From: an uncultured Pseudomonadales bacterium | GTDB taxonomy: Bacteria; Patescibacteriota; Microgenomatia; UBA1400; PJMF01 | DNA length: 64,000 nt | Direction of reading: 5' to 3' | Assembly: GCA_964491115.1 (NCBI GenBank) | Contig: CAZBEW010000001.1 | Span: 62,936-126,935, forward strand | Part shown: positions 35,413 through 55,158 of the stretch, piece by piece | How positions within the stretch are numbered: position 1 is the stretch's first letter | How the letters are laid out: every line of letters starts with the position of its first letter | The notes under the pieces: model-generated | Databases searched by the model: none | Seen by the model: the letters and a program-made list of their open reading frames with translations, nothing else | What the model was told of the DNA's origin: nothing | Position numbers and translations under genes: made by a program

Positions 35413-37623
35413 TTACCCTGTTTTTTGTTTAGCGTAGCGTTCTCGACTACTGCGAATTACTTTGTCTCGGTTTTGGTTTTTGCTACTGGCTAATCTTAGC
35501 GTGTAAGCTGGAAATGGCCGACTCAAAACATTATCAATAGAAATCTTGTTAATAATTTGGTATTTGCCCAAATTAACTAAATCATCTTGAGTATAGAGTC
35601 CCCCATATTCAGCTTGAAAATAATTGGCATCACCAGCTCCCATCACAAAACTAATAATATTGCCACAGTTACCAAAAATAGCGTTACGCACTTCTTCAGG
35701 AATTTGATCAATATATTGGTTGGCCAAAATTAAATTGAGTCGATATTTTCTCGCTTCAGATAAAATTTTGACAAAAGCATCGGTGGCAAAATTTTGAAAT
35801 TCATCGACATATAAATAAAAATCACGACGCTCTTCTTCATCGGTGTTGACTCTAGCCATCGCTGCCAATTGAATTTTAGTAATCATCATCGCGCCCAACA
35901 AGGTGGCATTGTCCTCACCCAAGCGCCCCTGAGACAAATTAATTAACAAAATTTTGCCCTCGTTCATTAATTTTTCAATGCTAAAAGATGATTGAGTGGT
36001 ATTAACCACATTGCGCACCAGCGGTGAAGAAACAAATTGACCAACCTTATTCAGAATTGAGGCAATTTGCTCTTGGCGTTGGCGATCACTCATTTTGTTA
36101 TATTCATTGACCCAAAAATTCTTTAAAATTGGATCATCGAGTTGGCTGACGACTTGCTCACGAAATTTTTCATTGGTTAATAAATCTAAAACATCTGACA
36201 GCTTGGCCTGCTCACTTTTTAATAAAGTCAGTAAACAATTGCGTAAAATATATTCAAGTCTTGGTCCCCAAGAATAACCATATAATTTCTTAAAAACTGA
36301 AATAATTCCAGAAGCAATCAGCTCCCGATGAGCTACATTTTCTCCCTCAAATAAATTAATCTGCACCGTGCGCTCTTGATCAGCTGGATCAAAGTAAATA
36401 ACATCATTAATCCTGTGCTTAGGAATATAATCCAATAAAGTTTCCACCAAATCCCCGTGGGGATCAATCACGCATAAACCCTTATTGTGTTTTAAGTCAT
36501 TAATGGCCATATTAGCCAGTAAAGTTGATTTACCAGTGCCAGTCTTACCAATGACATAAACATGACGACGTCGATCAGCATCAGTTAAGCCGTATTTACT
36601 TGTTTGATTTTTATAATTGGTTTCAGCAATAATATTAATCTTATTTTTGCTTTCTTCAGAACTGTTAATGTTGATGATTGGCAAATTGTCTGGAGCCTCA
36701 CCAAGAATTTTTTTACCCCAAGAAATATTATTAATATTACTCAGTTTTTGATTGGGAAAATGATAGATAGTTGCTAATTCATCGACACTCAGGGTCAGTG
36801 CTGGCACCAAGTTAAAGCTGCGATTTTTCATGCTTTTGATAAAGCAGTTTTTGAGAAAGAGACGTTTTGAGAAAAGTAATTCATTGCTTTCACTTCTAGA
36901 AGTGGCTTGATAAGCGGCAGCAATATTGCTCAATAAGAGTTGGCTTTTTTGACGATTGTCAGTGGCTACCGCAATTTTAAAAGCGGCTCTTAATTGCCTT
37001 TGTTCCAGTTTTTGCTTGATTAGTTGTTGCTGAGGGTGCTCGGCCAATTCTTCAGTTGATGGAGTTTGATCTATAGAAAAGAAAGGAAAATCAGTGGCTA
37101 ATAGCAATTGAATTAAAATCGTGTCCTCTCCCTCGTTTTTTGATAAAGTCGACATTAAAGTCGCTAAAGGATCAATATCTACAAAATCATGATGGGTTTT
37201 GAGTGGTAAATAATGACGATTTTTTAATCTAAAACTGGAAATAGCTAGTTGGCGATTTTCGAGTAAAAAATAATCAACTGGGTCAGAATCCATTTCTTCA
37301 ATGACGGCTTTGGGATAGCTGGCATGAATTGCTCCCTTAAAATAGGCTAAAAGTCGGACAGGCACGTTGATTAAAAAATGAATACTTTGCTCGCGCACTA
37401 GGATTTCAAAACTCAATCTTTCGTTTTTTCCCAATAATTTCTCAAACAAGTTGTTTTTAAGTTTTGGCAAAGTAGATAATAACTGCACTGCTGCCTCTGC
37501 AGTTTCTTCACCATCCTTGCTGGTTTTGATTTTGAGTAAGATATGATTTTTTGGCACGTTTTCAGTATAACAAATTATAATGAGCTTTTTTTCTCCAAAC
37601 GAAGTGCTCGATTTTTTTGCCAT
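35413..37623 (-). CDS. P-loop ATPase of the FtsK/HerA/VirD4 (type IV coupling protein-like) superfamily with a novel 350-aa N-terminal domain
   Basis: Walker A VIGKTGTGKSTLL, then VIDPHGD, Walker B FYLYVDEFQNF, and LILANQ. No TM helices. The ORF start overlaps the upstream membrane-protein gene by 49 nt. Confidence 0.6.
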   Translation of the reverse strand: MAKKSSTSFGEKKLIIICYTENVPKNHILLKIKTSKDGEETAEAAVQLLSTLPKLKNNLFEKLLGKNERLSFEILVREQSIHFLINVPVRLLAYFKGAIHASYPKAVIEEMDSDPVDYFLLENRQLAISSFRLKNRHYLPLKTHHDFVDIDPLATLMSTLSKNEGEDTILIQLLLATDFPFFSIDQTPSTEELAEHPQQQLIKQKLEQRQLRAAFKIAVATDNRQKSQLLLSNIAAAYQATSRSESNELLFSKRLFLKNCFIKSMKNRSFNLVPALTLSVDELATIYHFPNQKLSNINNISWGKKILGEAPDNLPIININSSEESKNKINIIAETNYKNQTSKYGLTDADRRRHVYVIGKTGTGKSTLLANMAINDLKHNKGLCVIDPHGDLVETLLDYIPKHRINDVIYFDPADQERTVQINLFEGENVAHRELIASGIISVFKKLYGYSWGPRLEYILRNCLLTLLKSEQAKLSDVLDLLTNEKFREQVVSQLDDPILKNFWVNEYNKMSDRQRQEQIASILNKVGQFVSSPLVRNVVNTTQSSFSIEKLMNEGKILLINLSQGRLGEDNATLLGAMMITKIQLAAMARVNTDEEERRDFYLYVDEFQNFATDAFVKILSEARKYRLNLILANQYIDQIPEEVRNAIFGNCGNIISFVMGAGDANYFQAEYGGLYTQDDLVNLGKYQIINKISIDNVLSRPFPAYTLRLASSKNQNRDKVIRSSRERYAKQKTG

Positions 37624-40600
37624 TTAGCTAGCAAAATTATTAACAAAGGCATTAAGAGCACCAGTCCCCCCAATTCTAAAAGTTGAGGCCAATAAACAAT
37701 ATAAATCTGACTATTATCGGTTGGTTTATTGATCACCCAGGCATTAGCCCAATTACTTAATTTATGATGTTCTAATTTTTGCCCATCTTGATAAGCGACC
37801 CAAGCAGGATCAAAAGCTTGAGATAGACTTAAGTATTTTGTTTGACAATTAGACGATAAATTAACTTGATAGAGCCAGAAAGCTCTTTTTTGCACAGTAA
37901 AATCACAAGCGCTAGGCTGTTCTTGAAAAACTTGAGCAGTAGCATTTCGCCATGATAAATTTTTCAAGAAATTATATGGCCAAAAAAATACTTCAAGTGA
38001 TTCAATCAGATCTTCATTTAGCTCTCGTCCATAAGAGTCAATTGAGAAATACAAGGTGTAAGCTTGATTAAAATCTTCGGTTGGTGGTAAAACTTGATAG
38101 TTGATTCCTTCGCTTAAATAAGTTTCGATGGGACTGCGACCCGAGCTATCTGATTGCACAGCAAAAACAGCGGGTAGACTAGCTAAATTCTTTGCCTCAA
38201 GCCTGATTAAATAGCCTAAATCGTGCTTTAAATTGGCCAAGGGGAAATGATCGCAGATGCTGGTGCCAACTGCCTGATAAAAAGTACCTTCAGCCCACTG
38301 TTCCTTAGCCACAGAACCTCCTTGTAATGGTCGACAATCAACTGGTTCAAAAACATTTTTCTCGCTCGTCATCAGATTACTTTGCAAAATTACTCGGGGA
38401 ATTTTCACTAATAATTGCTCAGTTCCTTGATGGGATTCTTGCTCAACCCGCTTAGTTTGCTCAACCTGCTCAACTTGCACATTAAACAAATTTAAATCAA
38501 AAAAAGCATAGTCAAAATAAGCAGTACTTTGCTCGCTACTTAAGGCTATCGTGTTAGAAACGCTGGTGTTGAGCAATAAATCAATTTGGCCACTGTTTTC
38601 CAGCTGAGCAATTAAGTGATTGTTAATATTTAGATAACAGGCCTCGCTAGCTAAACATAAATGAGCATCAAAAACAAAATCTTTTTCTAAAGTAAAATTT
38701 GTTATTTGGTCTTGCTCAATAATTTCTGGAGCTAACAAACTAAAATTGAGTTGAGCCTCACCATTTTCCACCAACCAAGTTAAACGAAAAGGCAAGTCTT
38801 TTTCACTTTTAAGTAAGTCTGCAAAGTGCAATTGAAAGTCGGTGCTGGGGCTAGCTTTCAAGCTAGTAAGATAAAAATAATGCTCATCTTCACTTAAAGA
38901 AAATTCAAGGTTTTTTTGCAGATGATTGCTAAATAATGCTGGAAAAGGATAAATAAAATCAGGATTAATAGAAGCGGCTCGCTGCTCAGTAAGCAGCTGA
39001 TCATCAATACTTAAATAATGAGACAAATCAGCAAAAGCCTGATCAAGCCAACTAAAGCGATAATTATTTATCACTCTAGGTAAATCATCATACAAGCTAA
39101 TGAATTCTTGACGAGCCTGGTGCGGCTGTTTTTTGACTTGATAAATGCTTAAAAAGTCATATTGTTCAAGCAAGTGAATATTAGTCGAACTTTGTAAAAA
39201 ATCACTTATAGCCTGGTAATTAAAGGGTTTTTTGGTATTACGATTAATAATTGATTCATCCAAGATTAAATAGTCAACATCGTATTGGGCGAAGACATTT
39301 TCTAGGGCAACAATATCTTGTCGATCGAGGGCCAACTGCAATTGCCAGTAATATCGTTCACTGGCTTCGCTCCAAACATCGAAAGCTCGATCTAAAATAG
39401 GCTGTTTAATACCATACCAAATAAATCCAGAGCCACGATAACCCCAATCATTCCATTGCCAACCATAAAAAGTATGCTGAGGTAAATTAGCGATGCGGCT
39501 GCTCGCTGGAGCTTGATCTTTAAAATAATCAAAAAGTTGAAAATAGGCATCGGGAATATTTATTCGTAAACGCGAATAGAAAAAATTACCAGTAAAACTT
39601 GGCCATGAATAATACAACAAGGACAGGAAAAACAAGCCAGACAAAATAAATTGCCAAACCCTCTTCTTTAATAAAGAAAAAAGCCAAGCCAAGCCAAAAG
39701 TCAGCAACAAACTATAAAAAAGACTGTAGGGCACAATCCATTTGGTGAAAGCTGAGCGAAATATTTGGCCAAACAAAGGCAAATATTGGCGTAAAAAATC
39801 ATAAAGAAAAGCCAAGGGTGGATTAGAACCTGCCAAAATAAAAACTGTAAACAAAAAAACCAGCAGAATGGCTAAATGACTGTGAGCTAAAAATGATTTA
39901 TTTTTTTTGCTGAAAATTAATAATCCCAAACCCAAAAGCAATAATAAAAAATAGAGCCAGCTTACAATAATAACGCCTGGTTGATGAAAGTGAGTTTTCC
40001 ACACATCCATCAGGTAAACACTATTTCCCCATTGATTAAAGTCTGTGTAATCAAGCCAAAAACCCTTGAGAGTGGCTAAATTAGCAAAACTACCAAATTG
40101 ATTATTTTTTAAGAAAGTTACCTCAGTAGACATCAGGTTAATTTTGGCATCGACGGTGGTGTTACTGGCAAAAATTGTAAAATAAATGACAGGTAATAGC
40201 CAAAAAGCATTGCTTAAAAAGACTATTAATAAAACTAGGGCAAATTTTTTCCAAGTAATTTTTTTCTTGAGTAGAAAAAAAACCATAATAATCAATAAAA
40301 TTAACAAATAAACAATGAAGACCGTTTGGACGTAAGCAAAAATGCTCCCCAAAAGAGAAAACAAGATAAACAATAATAAGTTTTTTTTAGTCGATTGTTC
40401 TAGATAGCTTAAAAAGTAATAAATTAACCATGGGAAAAAAGCAAAAAAAGCGGCAAAAGGCTCAAAAGTGACATAAAAATTTTGCACTGTGCCCAAGTTT
40501 AATAAATAAAAACTAGCACCAAGAACAGCCAATAGTCGACATTGCTTATTGTTTCTTAATAAATGGGCAAATAAACGATAAGCTCCTAAAACACCCAGTA

Positions 40601-40910
40601 ATAAAGACAAATAATTCCAGAAATATCTTAGCCACTCTTGTTTTAAGATTAAAGATAAGGGCCATAACAACAGCTGGCGAATTAAGTCTGCTCCATGAGC
40701 CATCCCTCCCAATAAACCCAAACCCTGATATTCTTGCCAAACAGCATTAAAAGTTCTTTCTAAATTAATCCCCAAATCAAGCTCAACGGGTAAATTATCC
40801 CAACCAATTAAATAAGTATCTGGGGTAAAGTTCTGATAACACAAAACAGTGACTAAGAAAAACAAAAGCAGCTGAGGCCAGATCTTTTTAACTAGGGAAA
40901 TAAATTTCAT
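37575..40910 (-). CDS. Giant 1111-aa polytopic membrane protein; possibly a GT-C-type glycosyltransferase (AftD/DUF3367-like)
   Basis: About 14 hydrophobic helices in the first roughly 470 aa, then a roughly 600-aa soluble domain with a final C-terminal TM (LGGLVLLMPLLIILLA). Family assignment is tentative. Confidence 0.55.
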   Translation of the reverse strand: MKFISLVKKIWPQLLLFFLVTVLCYQNFTPDTYLIGWDNLPVELDLGINLERTFNAVWQEYQGLGLLGGMAHGADLIRQLLLWPLSLILKQEWLRYFWNYLSLLLGVLGAYRLFAHLLRNNKQCRLLAVLGASFYLLNLGTVQNFYVTFEPFAAFFAFFPWLIYYFLSYLEQSTKKNLLLFILFSLLGSIFAYVQTVFIVYLLILLIIMVFFLLKKKITWKKFALVLLIVFLSNAFWLLPVIYFTIFASNTTVDAKINLMSTEVTFLKNNQFGSFANLATLKGFWLDYTDFNQWGNSVYLMDVWKTHFHQPGVIIVSWLYFLLLLLGLGLLIFSKKNKSFLAHSHLAILLVFLFTVFILAGSNPPLAFLYDFLRQYLPLFGQIFRSAFTKWIVPYSLFYSLLLTFGLAWLFSLLKKRVWQFILSGLFFLSLLYYSWPSFTGNFFYSRLRINIPDAYFQLFDYFKDQAPASSRIANLPQHTFYGWQWNDWGYRGSGFIWYGIKQPILDRAFDVWSEASERYYWQLQLALDRQDIVALENVFAQYDVDYLILDESIINRNTKKPFNYQAISDFLQSSTNIHLLEQYDFLSIYQVKKQPHQARQEFISLYDDLPRVINNYRFSWLDQAFADLSHYLSIDDQLLTEQRAASINPDFIYPFPALFSNHLQKNLEFSLSEDEHYFYLTSLKASPSTDFQLHFADLLKSEKDLPFRLTWLVENGEAQLNFSLLAPEIIEQDQITNFTLEKDFVFDAHLCLASEACYLNINNHLIAQLENSGQIDLLLNTSVSNTIALSSEQSTAYFDYAFFDLNLFNVQVEQVEQTKRVEQESHQGTEQLLVKIPRVILQSNLMTSEKNVFEPVDCRPLQGGSVAKEQWAEGTFYQAVGTSICDHFPLANLKHDLGYLIRLEAKNLASLPAVFAVQSDSSGRSPIETYLSEGINYQVLPPTEDFNQAYTLYFSIDSYGRELNEDLIESLEVFFWPYNFLKNLSWRNATAQVFQEQPSACDFTVQKRAFWLYQVNLSSNCQTKYLSLSQAFDPAWVAYQDGQKLEHHKLSNWANAWVINKPTDNSQIYIVYWPQLLELGGLVLLMPLLIILLAKWQKNRALRLEKKSSL

Positions 40911-42424: not shown

Positions 42425-43342
42425 TTATGGGGCATAAGCCGTGAGGCTTTGCCCTGGAAAGGTGGCGGCCGCCCAGGCCTTTACCTGGGCTTCGGTCCAG
42501 CTGCTTGGCATTAGCCAAGCTTGGACCGTTTTATAAGCAATATTGTCCTGGGCATTCACCCAGAACACCAGCTGTTCATCCAACAGCGCGACAGTAGTCG
42601 CGCCTCGAGCGCCAATGCTGGCGCTGAAAGCTGAGCCATCCCAAACCCCGTGTACCGAAATAGACTGGGGTTGGTCAAAGTCGGCGTTGTCTGGCAAAAC
42701 CACCACTGGTGTGGCTTGTCCTAAGGGAAAAACAAAAATGTTTTTCCCGTAGTGGACAAAAATTGTCCAGTCGTAACCATTTGCTATCTGGTTCTGACGT
42801 TTTGCCGTCACGAACTCAGATGCGATCGGCGGCTTTGTAGTGGAAAAGTCCGCCATGTTCCAGTCTGCGGGATACACCCACAGGCTGGCCTCACGAACGG
42901 AGAGTTCCCACTCCACACCTGGGTCAAAGACCCAAATATGGTGCTCGGGATCGAGGGTCTGGCGACCCTCAATCAAAATGTTGCAACCAGCATAGTCTGC
43001 CAGCTGCTTCATTCCTGAAGACAACTTATAAAAGCCGTCTTCTTTCAGGTTGCTGAGGAATTCGATCCTCATTCCCTGATATCCGAGCGGACAATCCGCG
43101 ATTGCGACCACGGGTTCTTCCACCGGTACTTCAACCACTGGTTCTTCAACTACGGGTTCGACCACGGGTTCGACCACCGGGTCTTCGACCACGGGGTCGA
43201 CCAGCACCGGTTCCACGATAGGTACGGTTGTTTCCTTTACCTCTGTTGGAGGCAAAGGGGGTGCTTCTTGCTCAACCGGAGTCGAGCAAGAGGCGAGTAA
43301 ACTCGCCACTAACAACAAAACAAACAAAATTTTTGCGCGCAT
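42425..43342 (-). CDS. Lipoprotein with a (P-V-V-E)n linker and a C-terminal globular domain; the gene is strongly GC-rich relative to the genome
   Basis: Real start MRAKILFVLLLVASLLASCS (ATG 43342, SD AAGGAG 8 nt upstream). Lipobox L-A-S-C. Roughly 30 aa of PVVE-type repeats. The DNA is visibly GC-rich (GGCGGCCGCCCAGGCC...), unlike all neighbours. Confidence 0.7.
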   Translation of the reverse strand: MRAKILFVLLLVASLLASCSTPVEQEAPPLPPTEVKETTVPIVEPVLVDPVVEDPVVEPVVEPVVEEPVVEVPVEEPVVAIADCPLGYQGMRIEFLSNLKEDGFYKLSSGMKQLADYAGCNILIEGRQTLDPEHHIWVFDPGVEWELSVREASLWVYPADWNMADFSTTKPPIASEFVTAKRQNQIANGYDWTIFVHYGKNIFVFPLGQATPVVVLPDNADFDQPQSISVHGVWDGSAFSASIGARGATTVALLDEQLVFWVNAQDNIAYKTVQAWLMPSSWTEAQVKAWAAATFPGQSLTAYAP

Positions 43343-43708
43343 GATTTTTTCTCCTTTTTCTTGCGCAAATTCCACTAGACAGCAGTGGTCACCGACTCGT
43401 CCATTGCCCTGATGGCACGCTTGGACCAGCTTCTCTAACAACCACCTCAATCATGATTGCTAAAAAAGCTGGACCAAAATGCCTCGGGCATTATTTCCTC
43501 CTTGTTAAGGTGCGTCTCTTTTCGTAAGTGACTCAAAACTCCAGAAGCAATTTCTAGGTTTTAAGCTTTACTTAAGAGCTCCTTCTTCTACTCTTTCGAG
43601 TAGAGAATAATTTTTGACACAAGGGTTGGGGAAAAAAGATGGAGCTGTCAAAAACTATTCTCTAATCAAAAGATTCATTACTTATTTATTAATTTATTAA
43701 TATATATA

Positions 43709-43878: not shown

Positions 43879-44556
43879 TTATTTACTAAATTTCTTTGAT
43901 TTGCCTAAAGCAAAAGCACCTACGCCAGCTAAAGCCACCGCTTCTAAAATTAAAACTGTGCTTAAATCAAAACCAGTGTCTGGAGTGCTCTCAGTAATAA
44001 TGGCAGCACCATCGCTTTTTACACAAAAGCTAGCATAATCACTATCACTCACATCATCTGGGCGAGAATAAACTTTGGCCTTATTGGTAATACAAGTAGT
44101 ACCAGCTGGTAATTCGTTTTTACCCTTAAATCGAGCAGTAAAATAGACAGTAATTTCTTCATCAGGATCAACGGTATCAATAATAAATTTTAATTCATTG
44201 TCCTTAAATTCAACTGGGTATTCTTTGCCGTCTGCTCCTAAATAGAACATGTAATCAACTAAACGAGCGAAATCATCAATTAGACGAACCTTGTTGGTTT
44301 TAACATCGCTCACATTTTTAATGCGTAATCTAAATTTAACTTCTTGCTCAGGAGCAAAAGTGTAAGAGCTAGCAGCAATATTGTCCCAATATTCATTGGC
44401 TTTGGGATTAAAAATCTTTTTATCTAGGCTTAGATCGCCGTTTTCACAGACTTCACCACCGCCATAAACGGTGTGACAATCGCGAGCACTGGCAACATTA
44501 AAAGTCACTAAAAGAAAAGCTGTTGCTAATAAAAGGGAAGAAATTATTTTTTTCAT
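43879..44556 (-). CDS. Secreted surface protein with a C-terminal sortase-type sorting signal (TPDTG motif, TM, basic tail)
   Basis: Signal peptide MKKIISSLLLATAFLLVTFNVASA. The C-terminus reads ...ESTPDTGFDLSTVLILEAVALAGVGAFALGKSKKFSK (motif, hydrophobic helix, K-rich tail). It lies next to the sortase gene. Confidence 0.6.
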   Translation of the reverse strand: MKKIISSLLLATAFLLVTFNVASARDCHTVYGGGEVCENGDLSLDKKIFNPKANEYWDNIAASSYTFAPEQEVKFRLRIKNVSDVKTNKVRLIDDFARLVDYMFYLGADGKEYPVEFKDNELKFIIDTVDPDEEITVYFTARFKGKNELPAGTTCITNKAKVYSRPDDVSDSDYASFCVKSDGAAIITESTPDTGFDLSTVLILEAVALAGVGAFALGKSKKFSK

Positions 44557-44698: not shown

Positions 44699-45520
44699 TT
44701 ATTCCTTAACAACAGGCACAGCGGTAATAAATAAACGCTGCCAACTGGTGCCCGGTGGCCAACAAGTTTGCAGTAATAAGATATTTTCCTCTTGAAGATT
44801 GTTAACAAAATCAATTTCTGTACTAGCGACTACATTTTGGGCAGTGACTTCGTAGACAAATTGTTCATCTCCCAAATGAAGAATGATTTGCTCGCCAATA
44901 GCTAAATCTTTGATTTGATAAAAAACCGCATTGTAAGCTTCGACATTCCATAAACCATTAGTAGAATGCCCAAAAATATAAATTAATTTTTCTTGACCAG
45001 GAAAAGCTGAGTTTTTGGCATGTGCCACACCAGATTCTAGTGCTGATTGATATTCTTCAGCATTATTAGGATCGATATTGGGATGAACCTGCTCGTAGAG
45101 TTCTAGGCTAGGTATTTCAATATAAAAAGGTAAGGTCGCGTAGTCGGGAGTTTCTATGAGCTTGGCTAAAGCGCTTTGACCGGCTTCTTGGCTGGAGGCC
45201 TCTTCTCTGGCAAAAATTGGCCAAGTCTTGTCGAGTTGCATTTTTGTCCAATCAAAAAAGGCAAAAGTATTCTCCTCTACTTCTTGTGGTAAATTTTTGA
45301 AAAATTCAGGAACAGCACTGATGAGCTGTTTTGATTGATTAAGTGTATTTGGTAATTTTTTAATTGCTTGAAAACTAAAAAATGGATTGCTTAAGATAAG
45401 CAGTAAAAAACTCAAAACAAAAGAAAAGATCGCCAACTTCTTGAGGCTTTTTGCTTTTTGTAAAATAAATTTAGCCGGGGATTTTTGATATAATCTCACC
45501 CTCGTCTTTTTATTTATCAT
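44699..45520 (-). CDS. Sortase (cysteine transpeptidase), N-terminally membrane-anchored
   Basis: TM at residues about 30-50. Catalytic His in LIYIFGHS, Cys in LLLQTCWPP (TLxTC-type), and Arg in SWQRLFI. Confidence 0.8.
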   Translation of the reverse strand: MINKKTRVRLYQKSPAKFILQKAKSLKKLAIFSFVLSFLLLILSNPFFSFQAIKKLPNTLNQSKQLISAVPEFFKNLPQEVEENTFAFFDWTKMQLDKTWPIFAREEASSQEAGQSALAKLIETPDYATLPFYIEIPSLELYEQVHPNIDPNNAEEYQSALESGVAHAKNSAFPGQEKLIYIFGHSTNGLWNVEAYNAVFYQIKDLAIGEQIILHLGDEQFVYEVTAQNVVASTEIDFVNNLQEENILLLQTCWPPGTSWQRLFITAVPVVKE

Positions 45521-45602: not shown

Positions 45603-46280
45603 ATGTTAAGTGCGAGATACGAGCGGAAATTTTTTTTAACTGAGCTAAATGATAAGCAATTAGAAACCATTATTAAATTGCACCCGGCAATTTTCTCAGA
45701 AATATATCACGAGCGCCAGGTTAACAGCCTTTATTTTGACAATCATAGTCTAGATTTTTATCAACATAATGTTCAAGGCAGTCAGGAACGTTTGAAAATT
45801 AGGCTGCGCTGGTATGATGACTTAGAAAATGCCCTCGACCCCAATTTGGAATTTAAAATTAAAGTTGGCTTGCTAGGCACTAAAGAGACAATTGCCTGCC
45901 AAAGTTTTTCCTCAGCTGGTGATTTGCCAATGATTAATGACTTGCTTATTACTGAAAATAATTTTGCATCGCTAAGTAAATATAAGCTAAAAAATCTCAA
46001 ACCAGTGATTTTAATTTCATATTTTCGGCGCTATTTTCAATCGGCTGATAAAAAATATCGCTTAACCATTGATCGTGATTTACGTTTTTATCAAGTTAAT
46101 AAAAATCAAATAACTTGGAACACTAAACTACAAATCAACGCAAATATCTTAGAATTAAAGTATGATCAGCAAAACGATACCGAGGCCGATAAAATTAGCT
46201 CATTTTTTCCTTTTCGCATGACTAAATCGTCTAAATATGTATTGGGAATGTTAAAAGTTTATCCGCAAGTTAAGATTTAA
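45603..46280 (+). CDS. VTC-domain (CYTH-like polyphosphate-polymerase-domain) protein
   Basis: N-term MLSARYERKFFL is typical of bacterial VTC-domain proteins. 225 aa. First gene of a tight three-gene plus-strand cluster. Confidence 0.55.
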   Translation: MLSARYERKFFLTELNDKQLETIIKLHPAIFSEIYHERQVNSLYFDNHSLDFYQHNVQGSQERLKIRLRWYDDLENALDPNLEFKIKVGLLGTKETIACQSFSSAGDLPMINDLLITENNFASLSKYKLKNLKPVILISYFRRYFQSADKKYRLTIDRDLRFYQVNKNQITWNTKLQINANILELKYDQQNDTEADKISSFFPFRMTKSSKYVLGMLKVYPQVKI

Positions 46281-46281
46281 C

Positions 46282-48180
46282 ATGATTTTAAAAAAAAATA
46301 AAAAATTTCACTTAGCTTGGAAAAAAATTTTTAAATATTTAGCTGCTTTTTTAATTTTATTTTTTTTCATTTTAATTTTATTTAATTTTGATTTTATAAA
46401 AATTAATTTATTAAAACAAAAAATAAGCTTTGATCCAGATATTAATTTTTCCAAGGAAGCGATTAATTTAACTTTAAGTTCACCAATTAAAAAGGCCACA
46501 ATTTATTACACTAAAGATGGCACTACTCCAGATGAAAGTAGCGAGCAATACCAAAATCCCATTGAAATTAAGGAAACTACCACTTTAAAATTTGTTCTTT
46601 ATAAAAAAGGCAAACAACTGGGGACCGTGCAAACCCATGATCTGTTTATTAATACCCATCACGATCTCGCAGTAATTTCTTTATCTACGGATCCAGTTAA
46701 TTTATGGGATGAAGAAACTGGCATTTATACAGAAGAAAATTATGCAAAGAAGGGCAAGGAGTGGGAAAGAAATGGGGTAATAAATTTTTATGAAGAAGAT
46801 GGCACACGCGGATTTTCTCGAGAAGTGGGGATTAGGATTCATGGCGGTGGAACACGAGGGTTACCGCAAAAATCTTTTCGGATTTTAATTACTAACAAGG
46901 AAAATAATCAAACTCTAAAATATCCCTTATTCCCTGATGGCAAAGTGCAGAATTTTAATTCTTTTATTTTAAGAAATGCTGGTGGTGATTGGAGCCATAC
47001 CCATTTGAGAGATGCGTTAATGCAAGAAATCGTTGAAGACGCCAATTTAACAGTTGATTTACAAGATTATCGTCCAGCAGTCCTCTATTTAAATGGTCAA
47101 TATTGGGGCTTATATGACATTCGTGAAAGATATGACCAAGATTATTTTAGCAATCACTATGGTGCCGATGCAAAACGCGTCAATATTTATTACGTGCCTC
47201 ACGATGTTGGCGTTGATCGCGGTCGAATACAACTGGACGAGGGAAAAGACACCGGGGGCGTTGAACTTTATAACAAGCTTTTTAATGAAACAAAAAGTTG
47301 CCAAAGTTGTACCGACTTAAATAATTTAAAACAATATCTGGACCCAATTAACTACCGCGATTATTTAATTACCGAATTACATTTTAATAATTATGATTGG
47401 CCTTATGGTAACGCTAAACTCTGGCGCTATGAAACCAATGCTTTTGAACCGAATGCTCCCAATGGTTTAGATGGGCGCTTCCGCTGGTTACTTTTTGATT
47501 TAGATGTGGGATTTGGAGCTGGTAAACAAAGTGAGGAAGAAATGCAAAGATCTGCCAAAGCCAATCCCTATCAAGATCGCTTGGTTGATGATCACTTCCC
47601 CTTTAGAAATTTATTTTATAACTACAGCTTTGCTAATGAGTTTGTCAATCAATATGCTGATTTATTGAATACATCCTTTAAATATGAAAACGTCGTAGCA
47701 AAAATTGATGAGCTAGCAGGCGCAATTGACTCTGAAATGCCTAGACAAATTGAGCGCTGGCATAATAAAGAAACTTGGCCAGGAATAATAAATAATCAAG
47801 AAACTATTGATAAAATTAAAAACATCGGCTCTTATGAAGAATGGAAAAACAATGTTGAATTATTAAAAGTCTATGCTTACTGGCGACCAATCTATATGAA
47901 AGAACATACGATCAACTTTTTTAATCTTTCAGGAATGAGCAATATCAGCATCAATACTAATAACCCTGCTTGTGGCTCAATTAAGGTCAACAGCATTATT
48001 ATTGATAAAGAACAAATGCCTTGGGTTGGAGAATATTTTAATGATGTTAGAATTAATATAGAAGCAATTTCAAGCGCCGGCTGCAAATTTGTTTCTTGGA
48101 CTGGCGATATTGAATCCAAAAATAAGAAAATTAATTTTTTACTTGATGCAAATATTAATTTAATTGCTAATTATAAATAA
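46282..48180 (+). CDS. CotH-family (atypical kinase-like) protein
   Basis: N-terminal TM. CotH core blocks GIRIHGGGTRGLPQKSFRILI, RNAGGDWSHTHLRDAL and YWGLYDIRERYD. Confidence 0.75.
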   Translation: MILKKNKKFHLAWKKIFKYLAAFLILFFFILILFNFDFIKINLLKQKISFDPDINFSKEAINLTLSSPIKKATIYYTKDGTTPDESSEQYQNPIEIKETTTLKFVLYKKGKQLGTVQTHDLFINTHHDLAVISLSTDPVNLWDEETGIYTEENYAKKGKEWERNGVINFYEEDGTRGFSREVGIRIHGGGTRGLPQKSFRILITNKENNQTLKYPLFPDGKVQNFNSFILRNAGGDWSHTHLRDALMQEIVEDANLTVDLQDYRPAVLYLNGQYWGLYDIRERYDQDYFSNHYGADAKRVNIYYVPHDVGVDRGRIQLDEGKDTGGVELYNKLFNETKSCQSCTDLNNLKQYLDPINYRDYLITELHFNNYDWPYGNAKLWRYETNAFEPNAPNGLDGRFRWLLFDLDVGFGAGKQSEEEMQRSAKANPYQDRLVDDHFPFRNLFYNYSFANEFVNQYADLLNTSFKYENVVAKIDELAGAIDSEMPRQIERWHNKETWPGIINNQETIDKIKNIGSYEEWKNNVELLKVYAYWRPIYMKEHTINFFNLSGMSNISINTNNPACGSIKVNSIIIDKEQMPWVGEYFNDVRINIEAISSAGCKFVSWTGDIESKNKKINFLLDANINLIANYK

Positions 48181-48242
48181 TAATCCTTTAATTATCTTAA
48201 AAATATTTTACAATTATAAACACTTAGCAAAGAAAGAAACTT

Positions 48243-48950
48243 ATGGCAAAAATTAATCAACTGGAATTTTTAAGTTCCTATTTTGACGACAGTAAAATTA
48301 CTGGCTCCTTAAATGAATTTATTTTAGATGTCGGTATTTTGGTCTTAATTTCATTTTTATTGTCAATAATCTATCAAAAATTTGGCAATTCTCTATCTAA
48401 TCGCAAAAAATTTGCGGCAAATTTTGTTTTATTGTCATTAATTACTATGATGATCATTTCTGTGATTAGATCATCTTTAGCCCTATCTTTAGGTTTGGTT
48501 GGAGCTTTGTCAATTATTAGGTTTCGCTCAGCTATCAAAGAGCCAGAAGAATTAGCATATATTTTTCTAGCGGTATCCTTAGGTTTGGCCTTTGGTGCCG
48601 GTCAGAGAGAAGTAGCAATTGTCTTTTTTGTTTTAATTAGCCTTGTGATTATATTAAGAAGCCTGATCGCGAAAAAGTTTAACTTTTTCAACCTTAAAAC
48701 TGATGAGGTTTTATATTTGAACATTAAGGCTGATGCTAAAATGGATTTAAAAAAGATCAATAATGTTTTGGATCAATACTGTAGCTTTATTGATTTAAAG
48801 CGAGTGGATGAAAAAGATAATCAAGCTGAGTTTTTATTTTTAATTAAGTTGAACTCTTTAGACAAGCTAGTGAGCATGAAAGATGCCCTGCTTTCTCTCG
48901 ATAAAAAAATAGATCTAACTTTGCTCAATGATGAAGGTTTGTTTAATTAA
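48243..48950 (+). CDS. DUF4956-like membrane protein
   Basis: 235 aa with about 4 TM helices, then a soluble tail. This is the canonical partner of VTC and CotH genes. Confidence 0.6.
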   Translation: MAKINQLEFLSSYFDDSKITGSLNEFILDVGILVLISFLLSIIYQKFGNSLSNRKKFAANFVLLSLITMMIISVIRSSLALSLGLVGALSIIRFRSAIKEPEELAYIFLAVSLGLAFGAGQREVAIVFFVLISLVIILRSLIAKKFNFFNLKTDEVLYLNIKADAKMDLKKINNVLDQYCSFIDLKRVDEKDNQAEFLFLIKLNSLDKLVSMKDALLSLDKKIDLTLLNDEGLFN

Positions 48951-49073: not shown

Positions 49074-49592
49074 CTATAATTTCTTTAAAATTTCTTCAAC
49101 TATTTGTTTTGCTTGTCCATTAATTAGAGATTGTGTCTCTATGGCTAAAAAAGGAATGTTGTTGTCTTTAAGAGATTTCTTAACGAACTGATCTCTAGCT
49201 TTTCTGTTATTCCACAGATGAGTTGAATCGTTCAGTTCAATTACTAATAAAGGTTGTAAATTTTGTTTATCAAATATAACAAAATCAACAAATAATTTAT
49301 TAAGCCATTCAAATTTTCCAGCAAGATCGTTTGATTCTTCTTTAACTTGTAAAAGCGTTGAAAGGTGAAGTTGCGGAAAAACTAAATAATTGCTATTTGA
49401 AGTTAAGTCTTGAAGTATTAAAAAAAGTTCTTTTTCATTAAGAGTTAAAAAATATTTCTTTTTCTTATACGGATTCAGTTCTCCATGGAGATAAAGATTT
49501 TTATTTCTTTCATCTTGTAACTTTAAATACAACAATATTGATGTGAAAGATAAGAAAGCAAATAAGAAAAGGAAATTAATGGTCACACTCAT
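49074..49592 (-). CDS. DUF2726 (PD-(D/E)xK nuclease-like) domain protein with an N-terminal TM
   Basis: VDFVIFDKQNLQPLLVIELNDSTHLWNNRKARDQFVKKSLKDNNIPFLAI matches the DUF2726 core (D...E.K-type). Confidence 0.65.
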   Translation of the reverse strand: MSVTINFLFLFAFLSFTSILLYLKLQDERNKNLYLHGELNPYKKKKYFLTLNEKELFLILQDLTSNSNYLVFPQLHLSTLLQVKEESNDLAGKFEWLNKLFVDFVIFDKQNLQPLLVIELNDSTHLWNNRKARDQFVKKSLKDNNIPFLAIETQSLINGQAKQIVEEILKKL

Positions 49593-49779
49593 ATAAATAA
49601 GTATAGCTTATTTAGATCAAATCTTCATCAAACCAACGTTCCACTGATCACAATAACGACTCTTTTTGATAATCACAGGCTTCAAAACTCACATCTGGCA
49701 AATTTTAAGCAAAAAAAAGCGAGATACATCCATACAATACGGAAAATAGACTGATCTATACAGAAAAAACCAATTCTTG

Positions 49780-49862
49780 CGGAGGTGAAGGGATTCGAAC
49801 CCTTGGAGCCGTGAGGCTCACGCTTTCCAAGCGTGTGCAATTGACCGCTATGCGACACCTCC
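49780..49862 (-). tRNA. tRNA-Ser (anticodon GGA), type II with a long variable arm
   Basis: Acceptor GGAGGTG/CACCTCC. Anticodon stem CACGC/GCGTG with loop TTGGAAA. Long variable arm. T-arm AAGGG-TTCGAAT-CCCTT. Discriminator G. Confidence 0.85.
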
Positions 49863-54336: not shown

Positions 54337-55158
54337 TTATTTTTTTAGCTCTTTTACTTCGGTATGACAAAACCACCAATCAAAACAATCTTTTTGACCG
54401 CGTCTTTTCTCAGCCTCTACCTCATCTTTCGCAGGTGGAATGATAACGTGATCGCCAACTAAATCATTGTTCGGCCAATTAGCTGGCATGGCCACTTTAT
54501 TAGCAGTCGAAAATTGCAAGGCTTTAACGACTCGTAAAATTTCTTCCATGTTACGACCTACTTCTTGAGGGTAATATAGAATTAAACGAATAATTGCCTT
54601 ATCATCAATCACAAAAACAGCTCTCACGGTGTCACTCCCTTTTTTCTCATGAATCATACCTAGTGATTTACCAACTCTACCCATGCTGTCGGCAATAATT
54701 GGGAAAGGAATTTTCACGCCTAATTTTTCATTAATCCATTCTGTCCACTTAATGTGAGAAAAAACTTGATCAACGGATAAACCAATTAACTGTGTATTAA
54801 TTTTTTTGAAATCTGGAGCCATTTTAGCAAAAGCGACAAACTCGGTAGTACAAACTGGAGTGAAATCTCCAGGATGACTAAATAAAACTGTCCACTTACC
54901 CATTAAATCTTGAGGAAAGGATAAGCGACCGTGGGTGCTGTGTACCTCAATTTGAGGAAATTTATCACCAATTAGGGGGAAAGAAGAAGTGCTTTGACTG
55001 CAATGCTTGTCGGGACATTGATTAGAACACTTATTTGAGCAGTTGTCGGAGCACTTTTTGGAGCACTGGCTGGGACACTGTTCTGGGCAATTTTCAGAAC
55101 ACTGACAATCTTGGCAAGGACAATCTGGGCAACAATTATTTAATTTTTTTTCTGACAT
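54337..55158 (-). CDS. Peroxiredoxin (Prx6/1-Cys-like, thioredoxin fold) fused to a roughly 56-aa N-terminal Cys-rich CX3C ladder
   Basis: Prx core FTPVCTTE. The N-terminus [53 protein letters not shown] has 15 Cys. The C-terminus has an extra CxxxxxxC. Confidence 0.8.

Follow-up and report, generated by a model that had tools for sequence, protein, structure and literature searches.

Three adjacent genes, encoding a VTC-domain protein, a CotH-family protein and a DUF4956-family membrane protein, form a conserved cell-envelope module that lies mostly in or beside polysaccharide-biosynthesis clusters. We describe this trio from positions 45603-48950 of a 64,000-nucleotide stretch of DNA (hereafter the window; contig CAZBEW010000001.1, positions 62,936 to 126,935) from an uncultured member of the Paceibacterota, within the candidate phyla radiation (CPR). 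ATP is scarce outside the cytoplasmic membrane, which raises the question of how bacteria could phosphorylate there. The trio is built as an answer would require, with a predicted polymerase inside, an apparently obligate membrane partner, a kinase-fold enzyme predicted outside and sometimes a phosphoesterase. In this report, we not only document the predicted architecture and the wide recurrence of the module but also weigh a possible mechanism against the explanations that compete with it.

A first-pass annotation, made from the sequence alone, had placed three tightly spaced plus-strand genes here, and intact open reading frames (ORFs) lie at exactly these positions: the VTC ORF (45603-46280, plus strand; 225 amino acids (aa), beginning MLSARYERKFFL), the CotH ORF (46282-48180, plus strand; 632 aa) and the DUF4956 ORF (48243-48950, plus strand; 235 aa). 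A single nucleotide separates the VTC stop codon from the CotH start codon, and a spacer of 62 bp (48181-48242) lies between the CotH and DUF4956 ORFs. Consensus scans of the trio region for promoters and terminators gave scores no better than those of shuffled sequence; because these scans were uninformative, only the tight gene spacing was used. The family names given by the annotation were borne out by Pfam, with E-values of 9.5e-31 for VTC (PF09359), 1.5e-41 for CotH (PF08757) and 1.6e-20 for DUF4956 (PF16316), and none of the three proteins matched an NCBIfam model.

The VTC protein spans positions 2-234 of the 235 in its Pfam profile (107.6 bits; cutoff 23), and the only matches in searches of the PDB, with the single sequence and with a profile, were the catalytic tunnel domains of the yeast proteins Vtc2, Vtc3 and Vtc4. 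In HMMER alignments to 8i6v_E, 5iiq and 3g3q, with native Vtc4 numbering taken from 8i6v_E, the window residues K9, R67, R69, K85, Y140, R142, S210 and K211 align to Vtc4 K200, R264, R266, K281, Y359, R361, S457 and K458, respectively. These eight Vtc4 residues coordinate triphosphate and E426 binds Mn2+; mutation of the triphosphate-coordinating residues lowers polyphosphate, and of these residues K458 alone differs between the active Vtc4 and the inactive Vtc2 and Vtc3 (bioRxiv 10.1101/2023.01.27.525886). Window E184, which stands in an invariant 'ELKY' stretch outside the HMMER alignment and shares an E-x-K pattern with Vtc4 E426/K428, is probably the counterpart of E426. All of the mapped residues, and E184 with them, are unvarying in 26 homologues from many phyla, and 85 of 86 homologues lack a hydrophobic segment. 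The window protein is a stand-alone protein with no second Pfam domain, and a fusion search of 1.84 billion cluster representatives, which yielded 3847 VTC-related ones, gave the same picture, the best 150 of these 3847 all being stand-alone proteins of about 195-285 aa. A tblastn search of 72,556 plasmids with the VTC protein returned no match, and hence no sign of plasmid carriage. Our comparisons predict that the window protein is a cytoplasmic polyphosphate polymerase of the Vtc4 triphosphate-tunnel type, and one that looks active. It resembles the yeast VTC complex (Vtc4/Vtc3 or Vtc2/Vtc1) in its triphosphate-binding residues, including that at K458, and probably in its Mn2+-binding glutamate; unlike the yeast complex, it is a separate, apparently soluble protein of 225 aa with neither an SPX domain nor DUF202 channel helices, whether fused or separate.

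The CotH protein was described by the first-pass annotation as anchored in the membrane, and an N-terminal anchor helix (~13-34) that follows a Lys-rich stretch is indeed found. The Pfam CotH match covers residues 184-536; residues 58-120 match CHB_HEX_C_1/Fn3_assoc (CHB_HEX_C_1 E 6.6e-17), and the C-terminus carries a weak InlB-B-repeat-like match. In an AlphaFold model (mean predicted local distance difference test (pLDDT) score 87.8) the anchor helix is followed by a CHB_HEX_C/Fn3_assoc beta-sandwich (~49-123), the CotH domain (~130-546) and a C-terminal beta-sandwich (~552-631). PDB searches with the CotH sequence and with a 21-sequence profile recovered the N-terminal beta-sandwich only and never 5jd9, so a fold search was used instead; with Foldseek, the top matches of the model were the Bacillus cereus CotH kinase structures 5jd9 and 5jda (E 2e-13 and 4e-13, probability 1.00, template modelling score 0.73 on the target, ~15% identity). 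Residues K197, R200, D372, N377, D406 and D408 are unvarying in 21 homologues and fall in the window motifs KSFR and D-x4-N...FDxDxxFG, and this K…D-x4-N…FDxD set is the pattern expected for a kinase lysine, a catalytic loop and a metal-binding aspartate; in Bacillus subtilis CotH, D228 and D251 are the catalytic and metal-binding residues (PMC7821199). Homologues of the window protein carry dockerin, type IX secretion system (T9SS) sorting, lamin-tail and leucine-rich repeat (LRR) domains, which are typical of secreted proteins and thus indicate that the CotH homologues are extracellular. A single N-terminal hydrophobic segment was found in 54 of 59 CotH proteins of a large type, and exactly one hydrophobic segment in all eight of the window type (8/8). 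On this evidence and the model, the window CotH is a membrane-anchored protein with a kinase fold, whose catalytic domain is predicted to lie outside the cell. Among the accessory domains of the family, CHB_HEX_C and beta-helix are carbohydrate-associated. Compared with the Bacillus CotH structures 5jd9/5jda, the window protein shares the Pfam family and the fold, and it keeps kinase-type K, D-x4-N and FDxD motifs; unlike them, it is predicted to be anchored and extracytoplasmic and is flanked by beta-sandwiches, its host is not known as a spore former, and the window ORF list holds no Ser-rich repeat proteins of the CotB/CotG type near CotH.

Two CotH subtypes accompany VTC and DUF4956, and both are present in some Bacteroidota loci. 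The first, of ~630 aa, is the window type with D-x4-N...FDxDxxFG; the second, of ~870-1000 aa, includes a beta-helix domain and keeps 'H-x5-N...EPIxFD', with the aspartate position replaced. The subtypes were seen in L003, L018, L025, L034 and most of L007-L085. An initial hidden Markov model (HMM) built on the window type missed most of the trio-linked CotH proteins, and an iterated second HMM recovered the ~900-aa subtype; the subtypes were compared by motif counts, because a global MAFFT alignment misplaced the catalytic region.

The third protein matches PF16316 with 74 bits (cutoff 30.6) and also reaches 19.7 bits against Pfam MgtC (PF02308), under the curated cutoff of 31.4. Its model (pLDDT 80.6) shows five transmembrane helices and, at the C-terminus, a beta-alpha-beta-beta-alpha-beta domain, which fold comparison shows to be ACT-like and to resemble the C-domains of MgtC proteins. 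The stretch 'SSLALSLGLVGALSI(I/V)RFR(S/A)AIKEPEEL' is almost unvarying across phyla. Loop 1 (SNRKK), loop 3 (RFRxAIK) and the tail after the fifth helix each hold a cluster of basic residues, and this clustering argues that the loops and the ACT domain are cytoplasmic and the N-terminus outside. The same topology is supported by three homologues in which an N-terminal signal peptide and a lectin-like 3keto-disac_hyd (DUF1080) domain precede DUF4956 (L014, 8646-9983; L068, 8485-9972; L078, 8556-9971). These three fusions occur in Anaerolineae and Actinomycetota loci without CotH, where the 3keto-disac_hyd domain may substitute for the outside partner. The model thus suggests an MgtC-like build for DUF4956, and we propose that it serves the VTC enzyme as a partner in the membrane or as a conduit. 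It is like MgtC/SapB/YhiD proteins in combining membrane helices with an ACT-like domain, and it differs from them in its own invariant 'RFRxAIKEPEEL' loop and in having a VTC gene almost always beside it.

This neighbourhood was quantified in two reciprocal surveys. A VTC-profile survey gave 80 genome loci, which were scored with purpose-built HMMs, and 42 of them extended at least 4 kb beyond VTC in both directions; within 6 kb of VTC, these 42 loci contained DUF4956 in 41, CotH in 36 and both in 35, a metallophosphoesterase lay near VTC in 11, and DUF4956 plus VTC without CotH is reported for 7/42. A survey with the DUF4956 profile gave 80 metagenome loci, of which 18 extended at least 4.5 kb beyond DUF4956 in both directions; VTC was present in every one of these (18/18) and CotH, and thus the complete trio, in 15. 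The recurrence of the trio in bacteria, which the first-pass annotation had stated, is therefore confirmed and extends to archaea: the hosts comprise Bacteroidota, Chloroflexota, Planctomycetota, Gemmatimonadota, Actinomycetota, Omnitrophota, Proteobacteria and Parcubacteria in addition to archaea, a range that spans CPR bacteria and Methanosarcina and is far wider than the Pel-linked cases of the literature. The wide host range also makes the hypothesis set out below testable in tractable hosts. Among archaea, complete DUF4956-CotH-VTC trios were seen in L064 (the Methanosarcina sp. Mfa9 chromosome), L023, L046 and L082, and L023, a Nanoarchaeota single-amplified genome, has two copies of the trio in opposite orientation.

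The genomic context of these loci points to glycans. A Pfam census of 139 flanking genes counted 10 Glycos_transf_2 and 10 group-1 glycosyltransferases, six sugar epimerases/dehydratases, three Wzy_C and two MBOAT proteins, with Polysacc_synt flippases also recurrent, and glycan genes were likewise seen beside the trio in individually inspected loci. Glycosyltransferases thus make up at least 20 of the 139 flanking genes, which is several-fold above the 1-2% that is typical of a genome, a comparison that uses a general figure for genomes and not a matched background. A calcineurin-like metallophosphoesterase recurs in about a quarter of loci (L003-L005; e.g. L004, 6907-8004), and these trio-linked enzymes often begin with a signal sequence and end in a membrane anchor, which indicates that they face outward. 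In L005, an inorganic pyrophosphatase adjoins the metallophosphoesterase.

The trio itself is not new to the literature, where it has been met beside pel operons. Whitfield et al. observed that pelDEADAFG in streptococci, clostridia and bifidobacteria is contiguous with a set of accessory genes that comprises cotH, a polyphosphate polymerase, DUF4956 and DUF4832 (10.1101/768473), and in Clostridium perfringens NELoc-2 VTC genes, CotH and a chitin-synthase-like glycosyltransferase lie together. In Streptococcus intermedius, SIR_1592 consists of an MgtC membrane domain and an ACT domain, SIR_1593 is a polyphosphate polymerase domain and SIR_1594 is a secreted CotH with FN3; in sputum medium, deletion of SIR_1592 or SIR_1594 removed more than 50% of the Pel-dependent aggregation, and the authors left the mechanism undetermined and reported that the three-gene synteny was not found outside Pel loci (PMC12345266, 2025). 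Our surveys, contrary to that report, find the synteny to be widespread outside Pel loci. SIR_1594/1593/1592 and the window trio comprise the same three families at the same predicted locations, and they differ in several respects: pel genes and DUF4832 accompany the S. intermedius set, whereas a Pfam scan of 18 neighbouring products in the window (21-52 kb) contained neither a Pel family nor DUF4832; the window order VTC-CotH-DUF4956 is not that of S. intermedius; the window CotH has a CHB_HEX_C beta-sandwich in place of a C-terminal FN3; and the window host is a CPR bacterium, whereas the pel-linked set belongs to Gram-positive hosts. The first-pass annotation had called the function of the trio unresolved, in keeping with the searchable literature, in which we found no mechanistic study. 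The window is thus a further instance of a described trio, in a lineage-specific form that lacks a fourth gene.

This fourth gene became apparent from the closest public genome, a Candidatus Paceibacterota metagenome-assembled genome (JAAYYE010000011.1, here L006), a 92%-identical sister with which the window is collinear over 37.5-56.6 kb except at the fourth gene and at the slot of a DUF2726 gene. In L006 (11323-12318) and in L001 (12589-13662), a 69%-identical relative, a gene for a polytopic membrane protein of 331-357 aa without a Pfam match lies between CotH and DUF4956; it is also present in L002, likewise a 69%-identical relative, and the L006 and L001 versions are 60% identical. Part of the fourth protein also matches an 846-aa membrane protein encoded downstream in L001. 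The left part of the 62-bp spacer of the window matches the end of the L006 CotH gene and the right part the L006 DUF4956 leader, and this clean junction is the scar of a deletion of about 1 kb that removed the fourth gene in the lineage of the window. By this sequence comparison, the ancestral module of the lineage had four genes, of which the window form lost one. Outside this lineage, no surveyed locus showed the fourth gene beside the trio, and the gene is therefore not a part of the core module. The ratios of nonsynonymous to synonymous substitution rates (dN/dS) against L006 are 0.095 for VTC, 0.07 for CotH and 0.02 for DUF4956, and values this low indicate that all three genes are under purifying selection and that the module was kept despite the loss of the fourth gene. 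Such strong purifying selection in a Paceibacterota genome of less than 1 Mb suggests that the module matters for the surface of these episymbiotic bacteria.

The same comparisons bear on the age of the locus. The first-pass annotation had assigned the trio to an accessory stretch, and this assignment did not stand: the region is collinear with L006, and in L001 the trio lies near the same tRNA-Ser(gga) (49779-49862 in the window, minus strand), a DNA-alkylation-repair gene and a GT-C-like membrane gene, the last being weakly similar to that of the window (26% identity). The retention of this neighbourhood in L001 indicates that the trio is a long-standing chromosomal resident. A genomic island at the tRNA-Ser was considered and rejected in view of this collinearity with L006 and of a guanine-plus-cytosine (GC) composition that is flat across the region, with no island signal; only the DUF2726 slot varies. 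The DUF2726 gene (49074-49592, minus strand; E 1.5e-17) is only 29% identical to its positional counterpart in L006, a sister that is otherwise about 90-98% identical, and its position beside the tRNA-Ser(gga) is, by this comparison, a variable slot. The DUF2726 gene also has a weak, sub-threshold match to the NCBIfam model 'DNA distortion polypeptide 3'.

We show a predicted division of VTC, DUF4956 and CotH between inside, membrane and outside, conservation of the active sites and synteny with glycan genes, and we tentatively propose, as the explanation we favour although it falls somewhat short of probable, that polyphosphate is made inside the cell and passed via or with DUF4956 to an outside CotH kinase that modifies surface glycans. 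According to this proposal, the VTC protein would use ATP to build polyphosphate on the inner side of the membrane, and DUF4956 would dock the VTC protein by means of its ACT domain and of its invariant basic loops in the cytoplasm and hand the chain, or phosphoryl groups, across the membrane. The extracytoplasmic CotH, without an ATP pool outside, would use the exported polyphosphate as a donor or transfer it, and would thereby phosphorylate or polyphosphorylate a surface polymer, most likely a glycan, while the extracytoplasmic metallophosphoesterase, where one is encoded (about a quarter of loci), would shorten the polymer. The phosphoesterase has a parallel in yeast vacuolar Ppn2, an endopolyphosphatase of the metallophosphatase family that acts across the membrane from VTC. 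The precedent is the yeast VTC complex, in which polymer synthesis and translocation are coupled (10.1101/2023.01.27.525886), and its channel subunits are unrelated to DUF4956. As in yeast, the membrane partner is encoded beside VTC; unlike in yeast, this partner is not a Vtc1 but DUF4956, and for the window module the coupling of synthesis to delivery is an inference and translocation a conjecture. The first-pass annotation had itself mentioned polyphosphate-linked surface modification, which we judge a reasonable reading of the locus. The broader formulation, in which VTC and DUF4956 would be the prokaryotic counterpart of the VTC machine, exporting phosphoanhydride energy, and extracytoplasmic CotH enzymes would act on surface glycans as polyphosphate-dependent kinases or (poly)phosphotransferases, seems to us doubtful. 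If true, the proposal would explain how kinase-fold enzymes work without ATP, in bacteria and archaea alike.

Several points weigh against polyphosphate export to CotH, chiefly the use of ATP by characterised CotH kinases, the regulatory associations of MgtC and ACT domains and the S. intermedius VTC-gene mutant. The ACT domain of DUF4956 suggests ligand sensing. There is no report of polyphosphate synthesis by a bacterial VTC protein, of export by DUF4956 or of polyphosphate use by CotH; the equivalence of D372 and D406/D408 to D228 and D251 of B. subtilis CotH is a matter of motif pattern only; a structural search with the membrane domain of DUF4956 found no solved relative, and the DUF202 channel helices of the yeast complex are not related to this domain; and no VTC-DUF4956 fusion occurred among the best 150 of the 3847 VTC cluster representatives. 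MgtC, the closest relative known for DUF4956, is known as a regulator (PMC12345266), of the F1Fo ATPase and of phosphate metabolism, and not as a channel. In S. intermedius, Pel levels rose in the SIR_1592 deletion and fell in the SIR_1594 deletion, and deletion of the VTC gene SIR_1593 brought no reported change in aggregation (PMC12345266); the opposite Pel shifts and the missing SIR_1593 phenotype fit poorly with a simple linear pathway.

One rival is a regulatory explanation, in which VTC and DUF4956 would sense or adjust the cytoplasmic phosphate or energy status without any export, and the outside CotH would be signalled and would control exopolysaccharide production or assembly, either with another donor or by binding alone. 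The MgtC build of DUF4956, with its weak Pfam MgtC match and ACT-like C-domain, the known regulatory role of MgtC (PMC12345266), the use of ACT domains as typical ligand sensors and the S. intermedius mutant data all agree with such a module. We nevertheless consider it unlikely, since the full Vtc4-type catalytic set, including the counterpart of K458, is invariant across phyla and argues for real polymerase chemistry, the catalytic-type residues of CotH are invariant as well, and a recurrent extracytoplasmic metallophosphoesterase makes little sense unless it finds a phosphate ester or phosphoanhydride as substrate outside. Pel is a cationic polymer, and polyphosphate might itself be the product, VTC and DUF4956 laying down a surface or matrix layer that, for example, cross-links a cationic polysaccharide such as Pel, with CotH anchoring, priming or capping the chains and not serving as a general kinase. 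Such a product would be served by the same topology and synteny evidence as export to CotH; the Pel association (10.1101/768473, PMC12345266) speaks for it, and the phosphoesterase could set the chain length. The retention of active-phosphotransferase motifs in CotH makes it distinctly unlikely in our view, and the absence of CotH from 7/42 loci fits it as much as it counts against it.

The two remaining explanations are local. The first-pass annotation had suggested that the trio acts on the adjacent sortase-anchored surface proteins, and the neighbours it had named (the sortase, the DUF2726 gene and the tRNA-Ser) are all present. The sortase gene (44699-45520, minus strand; PF04203, E 2.9e-19) and the gene for its presumed substrate, a DUF11-like protein of 225 aa (43879-44556, minus strand), are divergent from the trio; the substrate has a signal peptide and a C-terminal tail ('...TPDTG + hydrophobic stretch + KSKKFSK') that resembles a sorting signal. 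In both the window and L006 this cassette lies 82 bp from the VTC start, and classical CotH does phosphorylate proteins (PMC7821199). The link is, however, confined to these two genomes, which are about 92-98% identical in these genes: no sortase lies within 10 kb of the trio in L001 or L002, co-occurrence elsewhere with the sortase or its substrate is 1/80 genome loci (L006 itself) and 0/80 metagenome loci, and the recurrent families in the census of 139 flanking genes do not include sortase, with detection based on one query sequence and the Pfam census, which very divergent sortases may escape. The DUF11-like substrate also lacks Ser-rich repeats like those of the CotB and CotG targets. The position of the trio beside a sortase cassette is a local coincidence, and modification of the sortase-anchored proteins is accordingly very improbable. 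Still less credit is due to the view that the three genes are chance neighbours, or remnants decaying after the loss of the fourth gene. The window did lose a polytopic gene that its relatives keep, but that gene is not core, being undetected outside the lineage; the trio recurs in 35/42 and 15/18 loci across phyla, and in the window its ORFs are intact, its catalytic residues are kept and its dN/dS values are 0.02-0.095. Synteny and selection have effectively refuted this view already.

The wider neighbourhood of the trio holds further envelope-related and other genes. The Pfam scan of 18 neighbouring products identified GT1, GT2, GT4 (MraY-type), PGA_cap, sortase and DUF2726 proteins, among others, and three large membrane proteins had no Pfam match at all. 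One polytopic membrane protein without a Pfam match, of 1111 aa (37575-40910, minus strand), is encoded beside a TrwB/VirD4-like coupling-protein ATPase (35413-37623, minus strand), with which its ORF overlaps by 49 bp, and a GT1 glycosyltransferase adjoins them. The product of 42425-43450 (minus strand) is a secreted, lipoprotein-like protein that contains PVVEEP repeats and matches no Pfam family; its gene coincides with a local rise in GC content to 0.44, and the protein is only 64% identical to its L006 counterpart, from which it differs in repeat length. A peroxiredoxin-like protein (54337-55158, minus strand) appears, from its translation only, to carry an unusual Cys-rich N-terminal extension.

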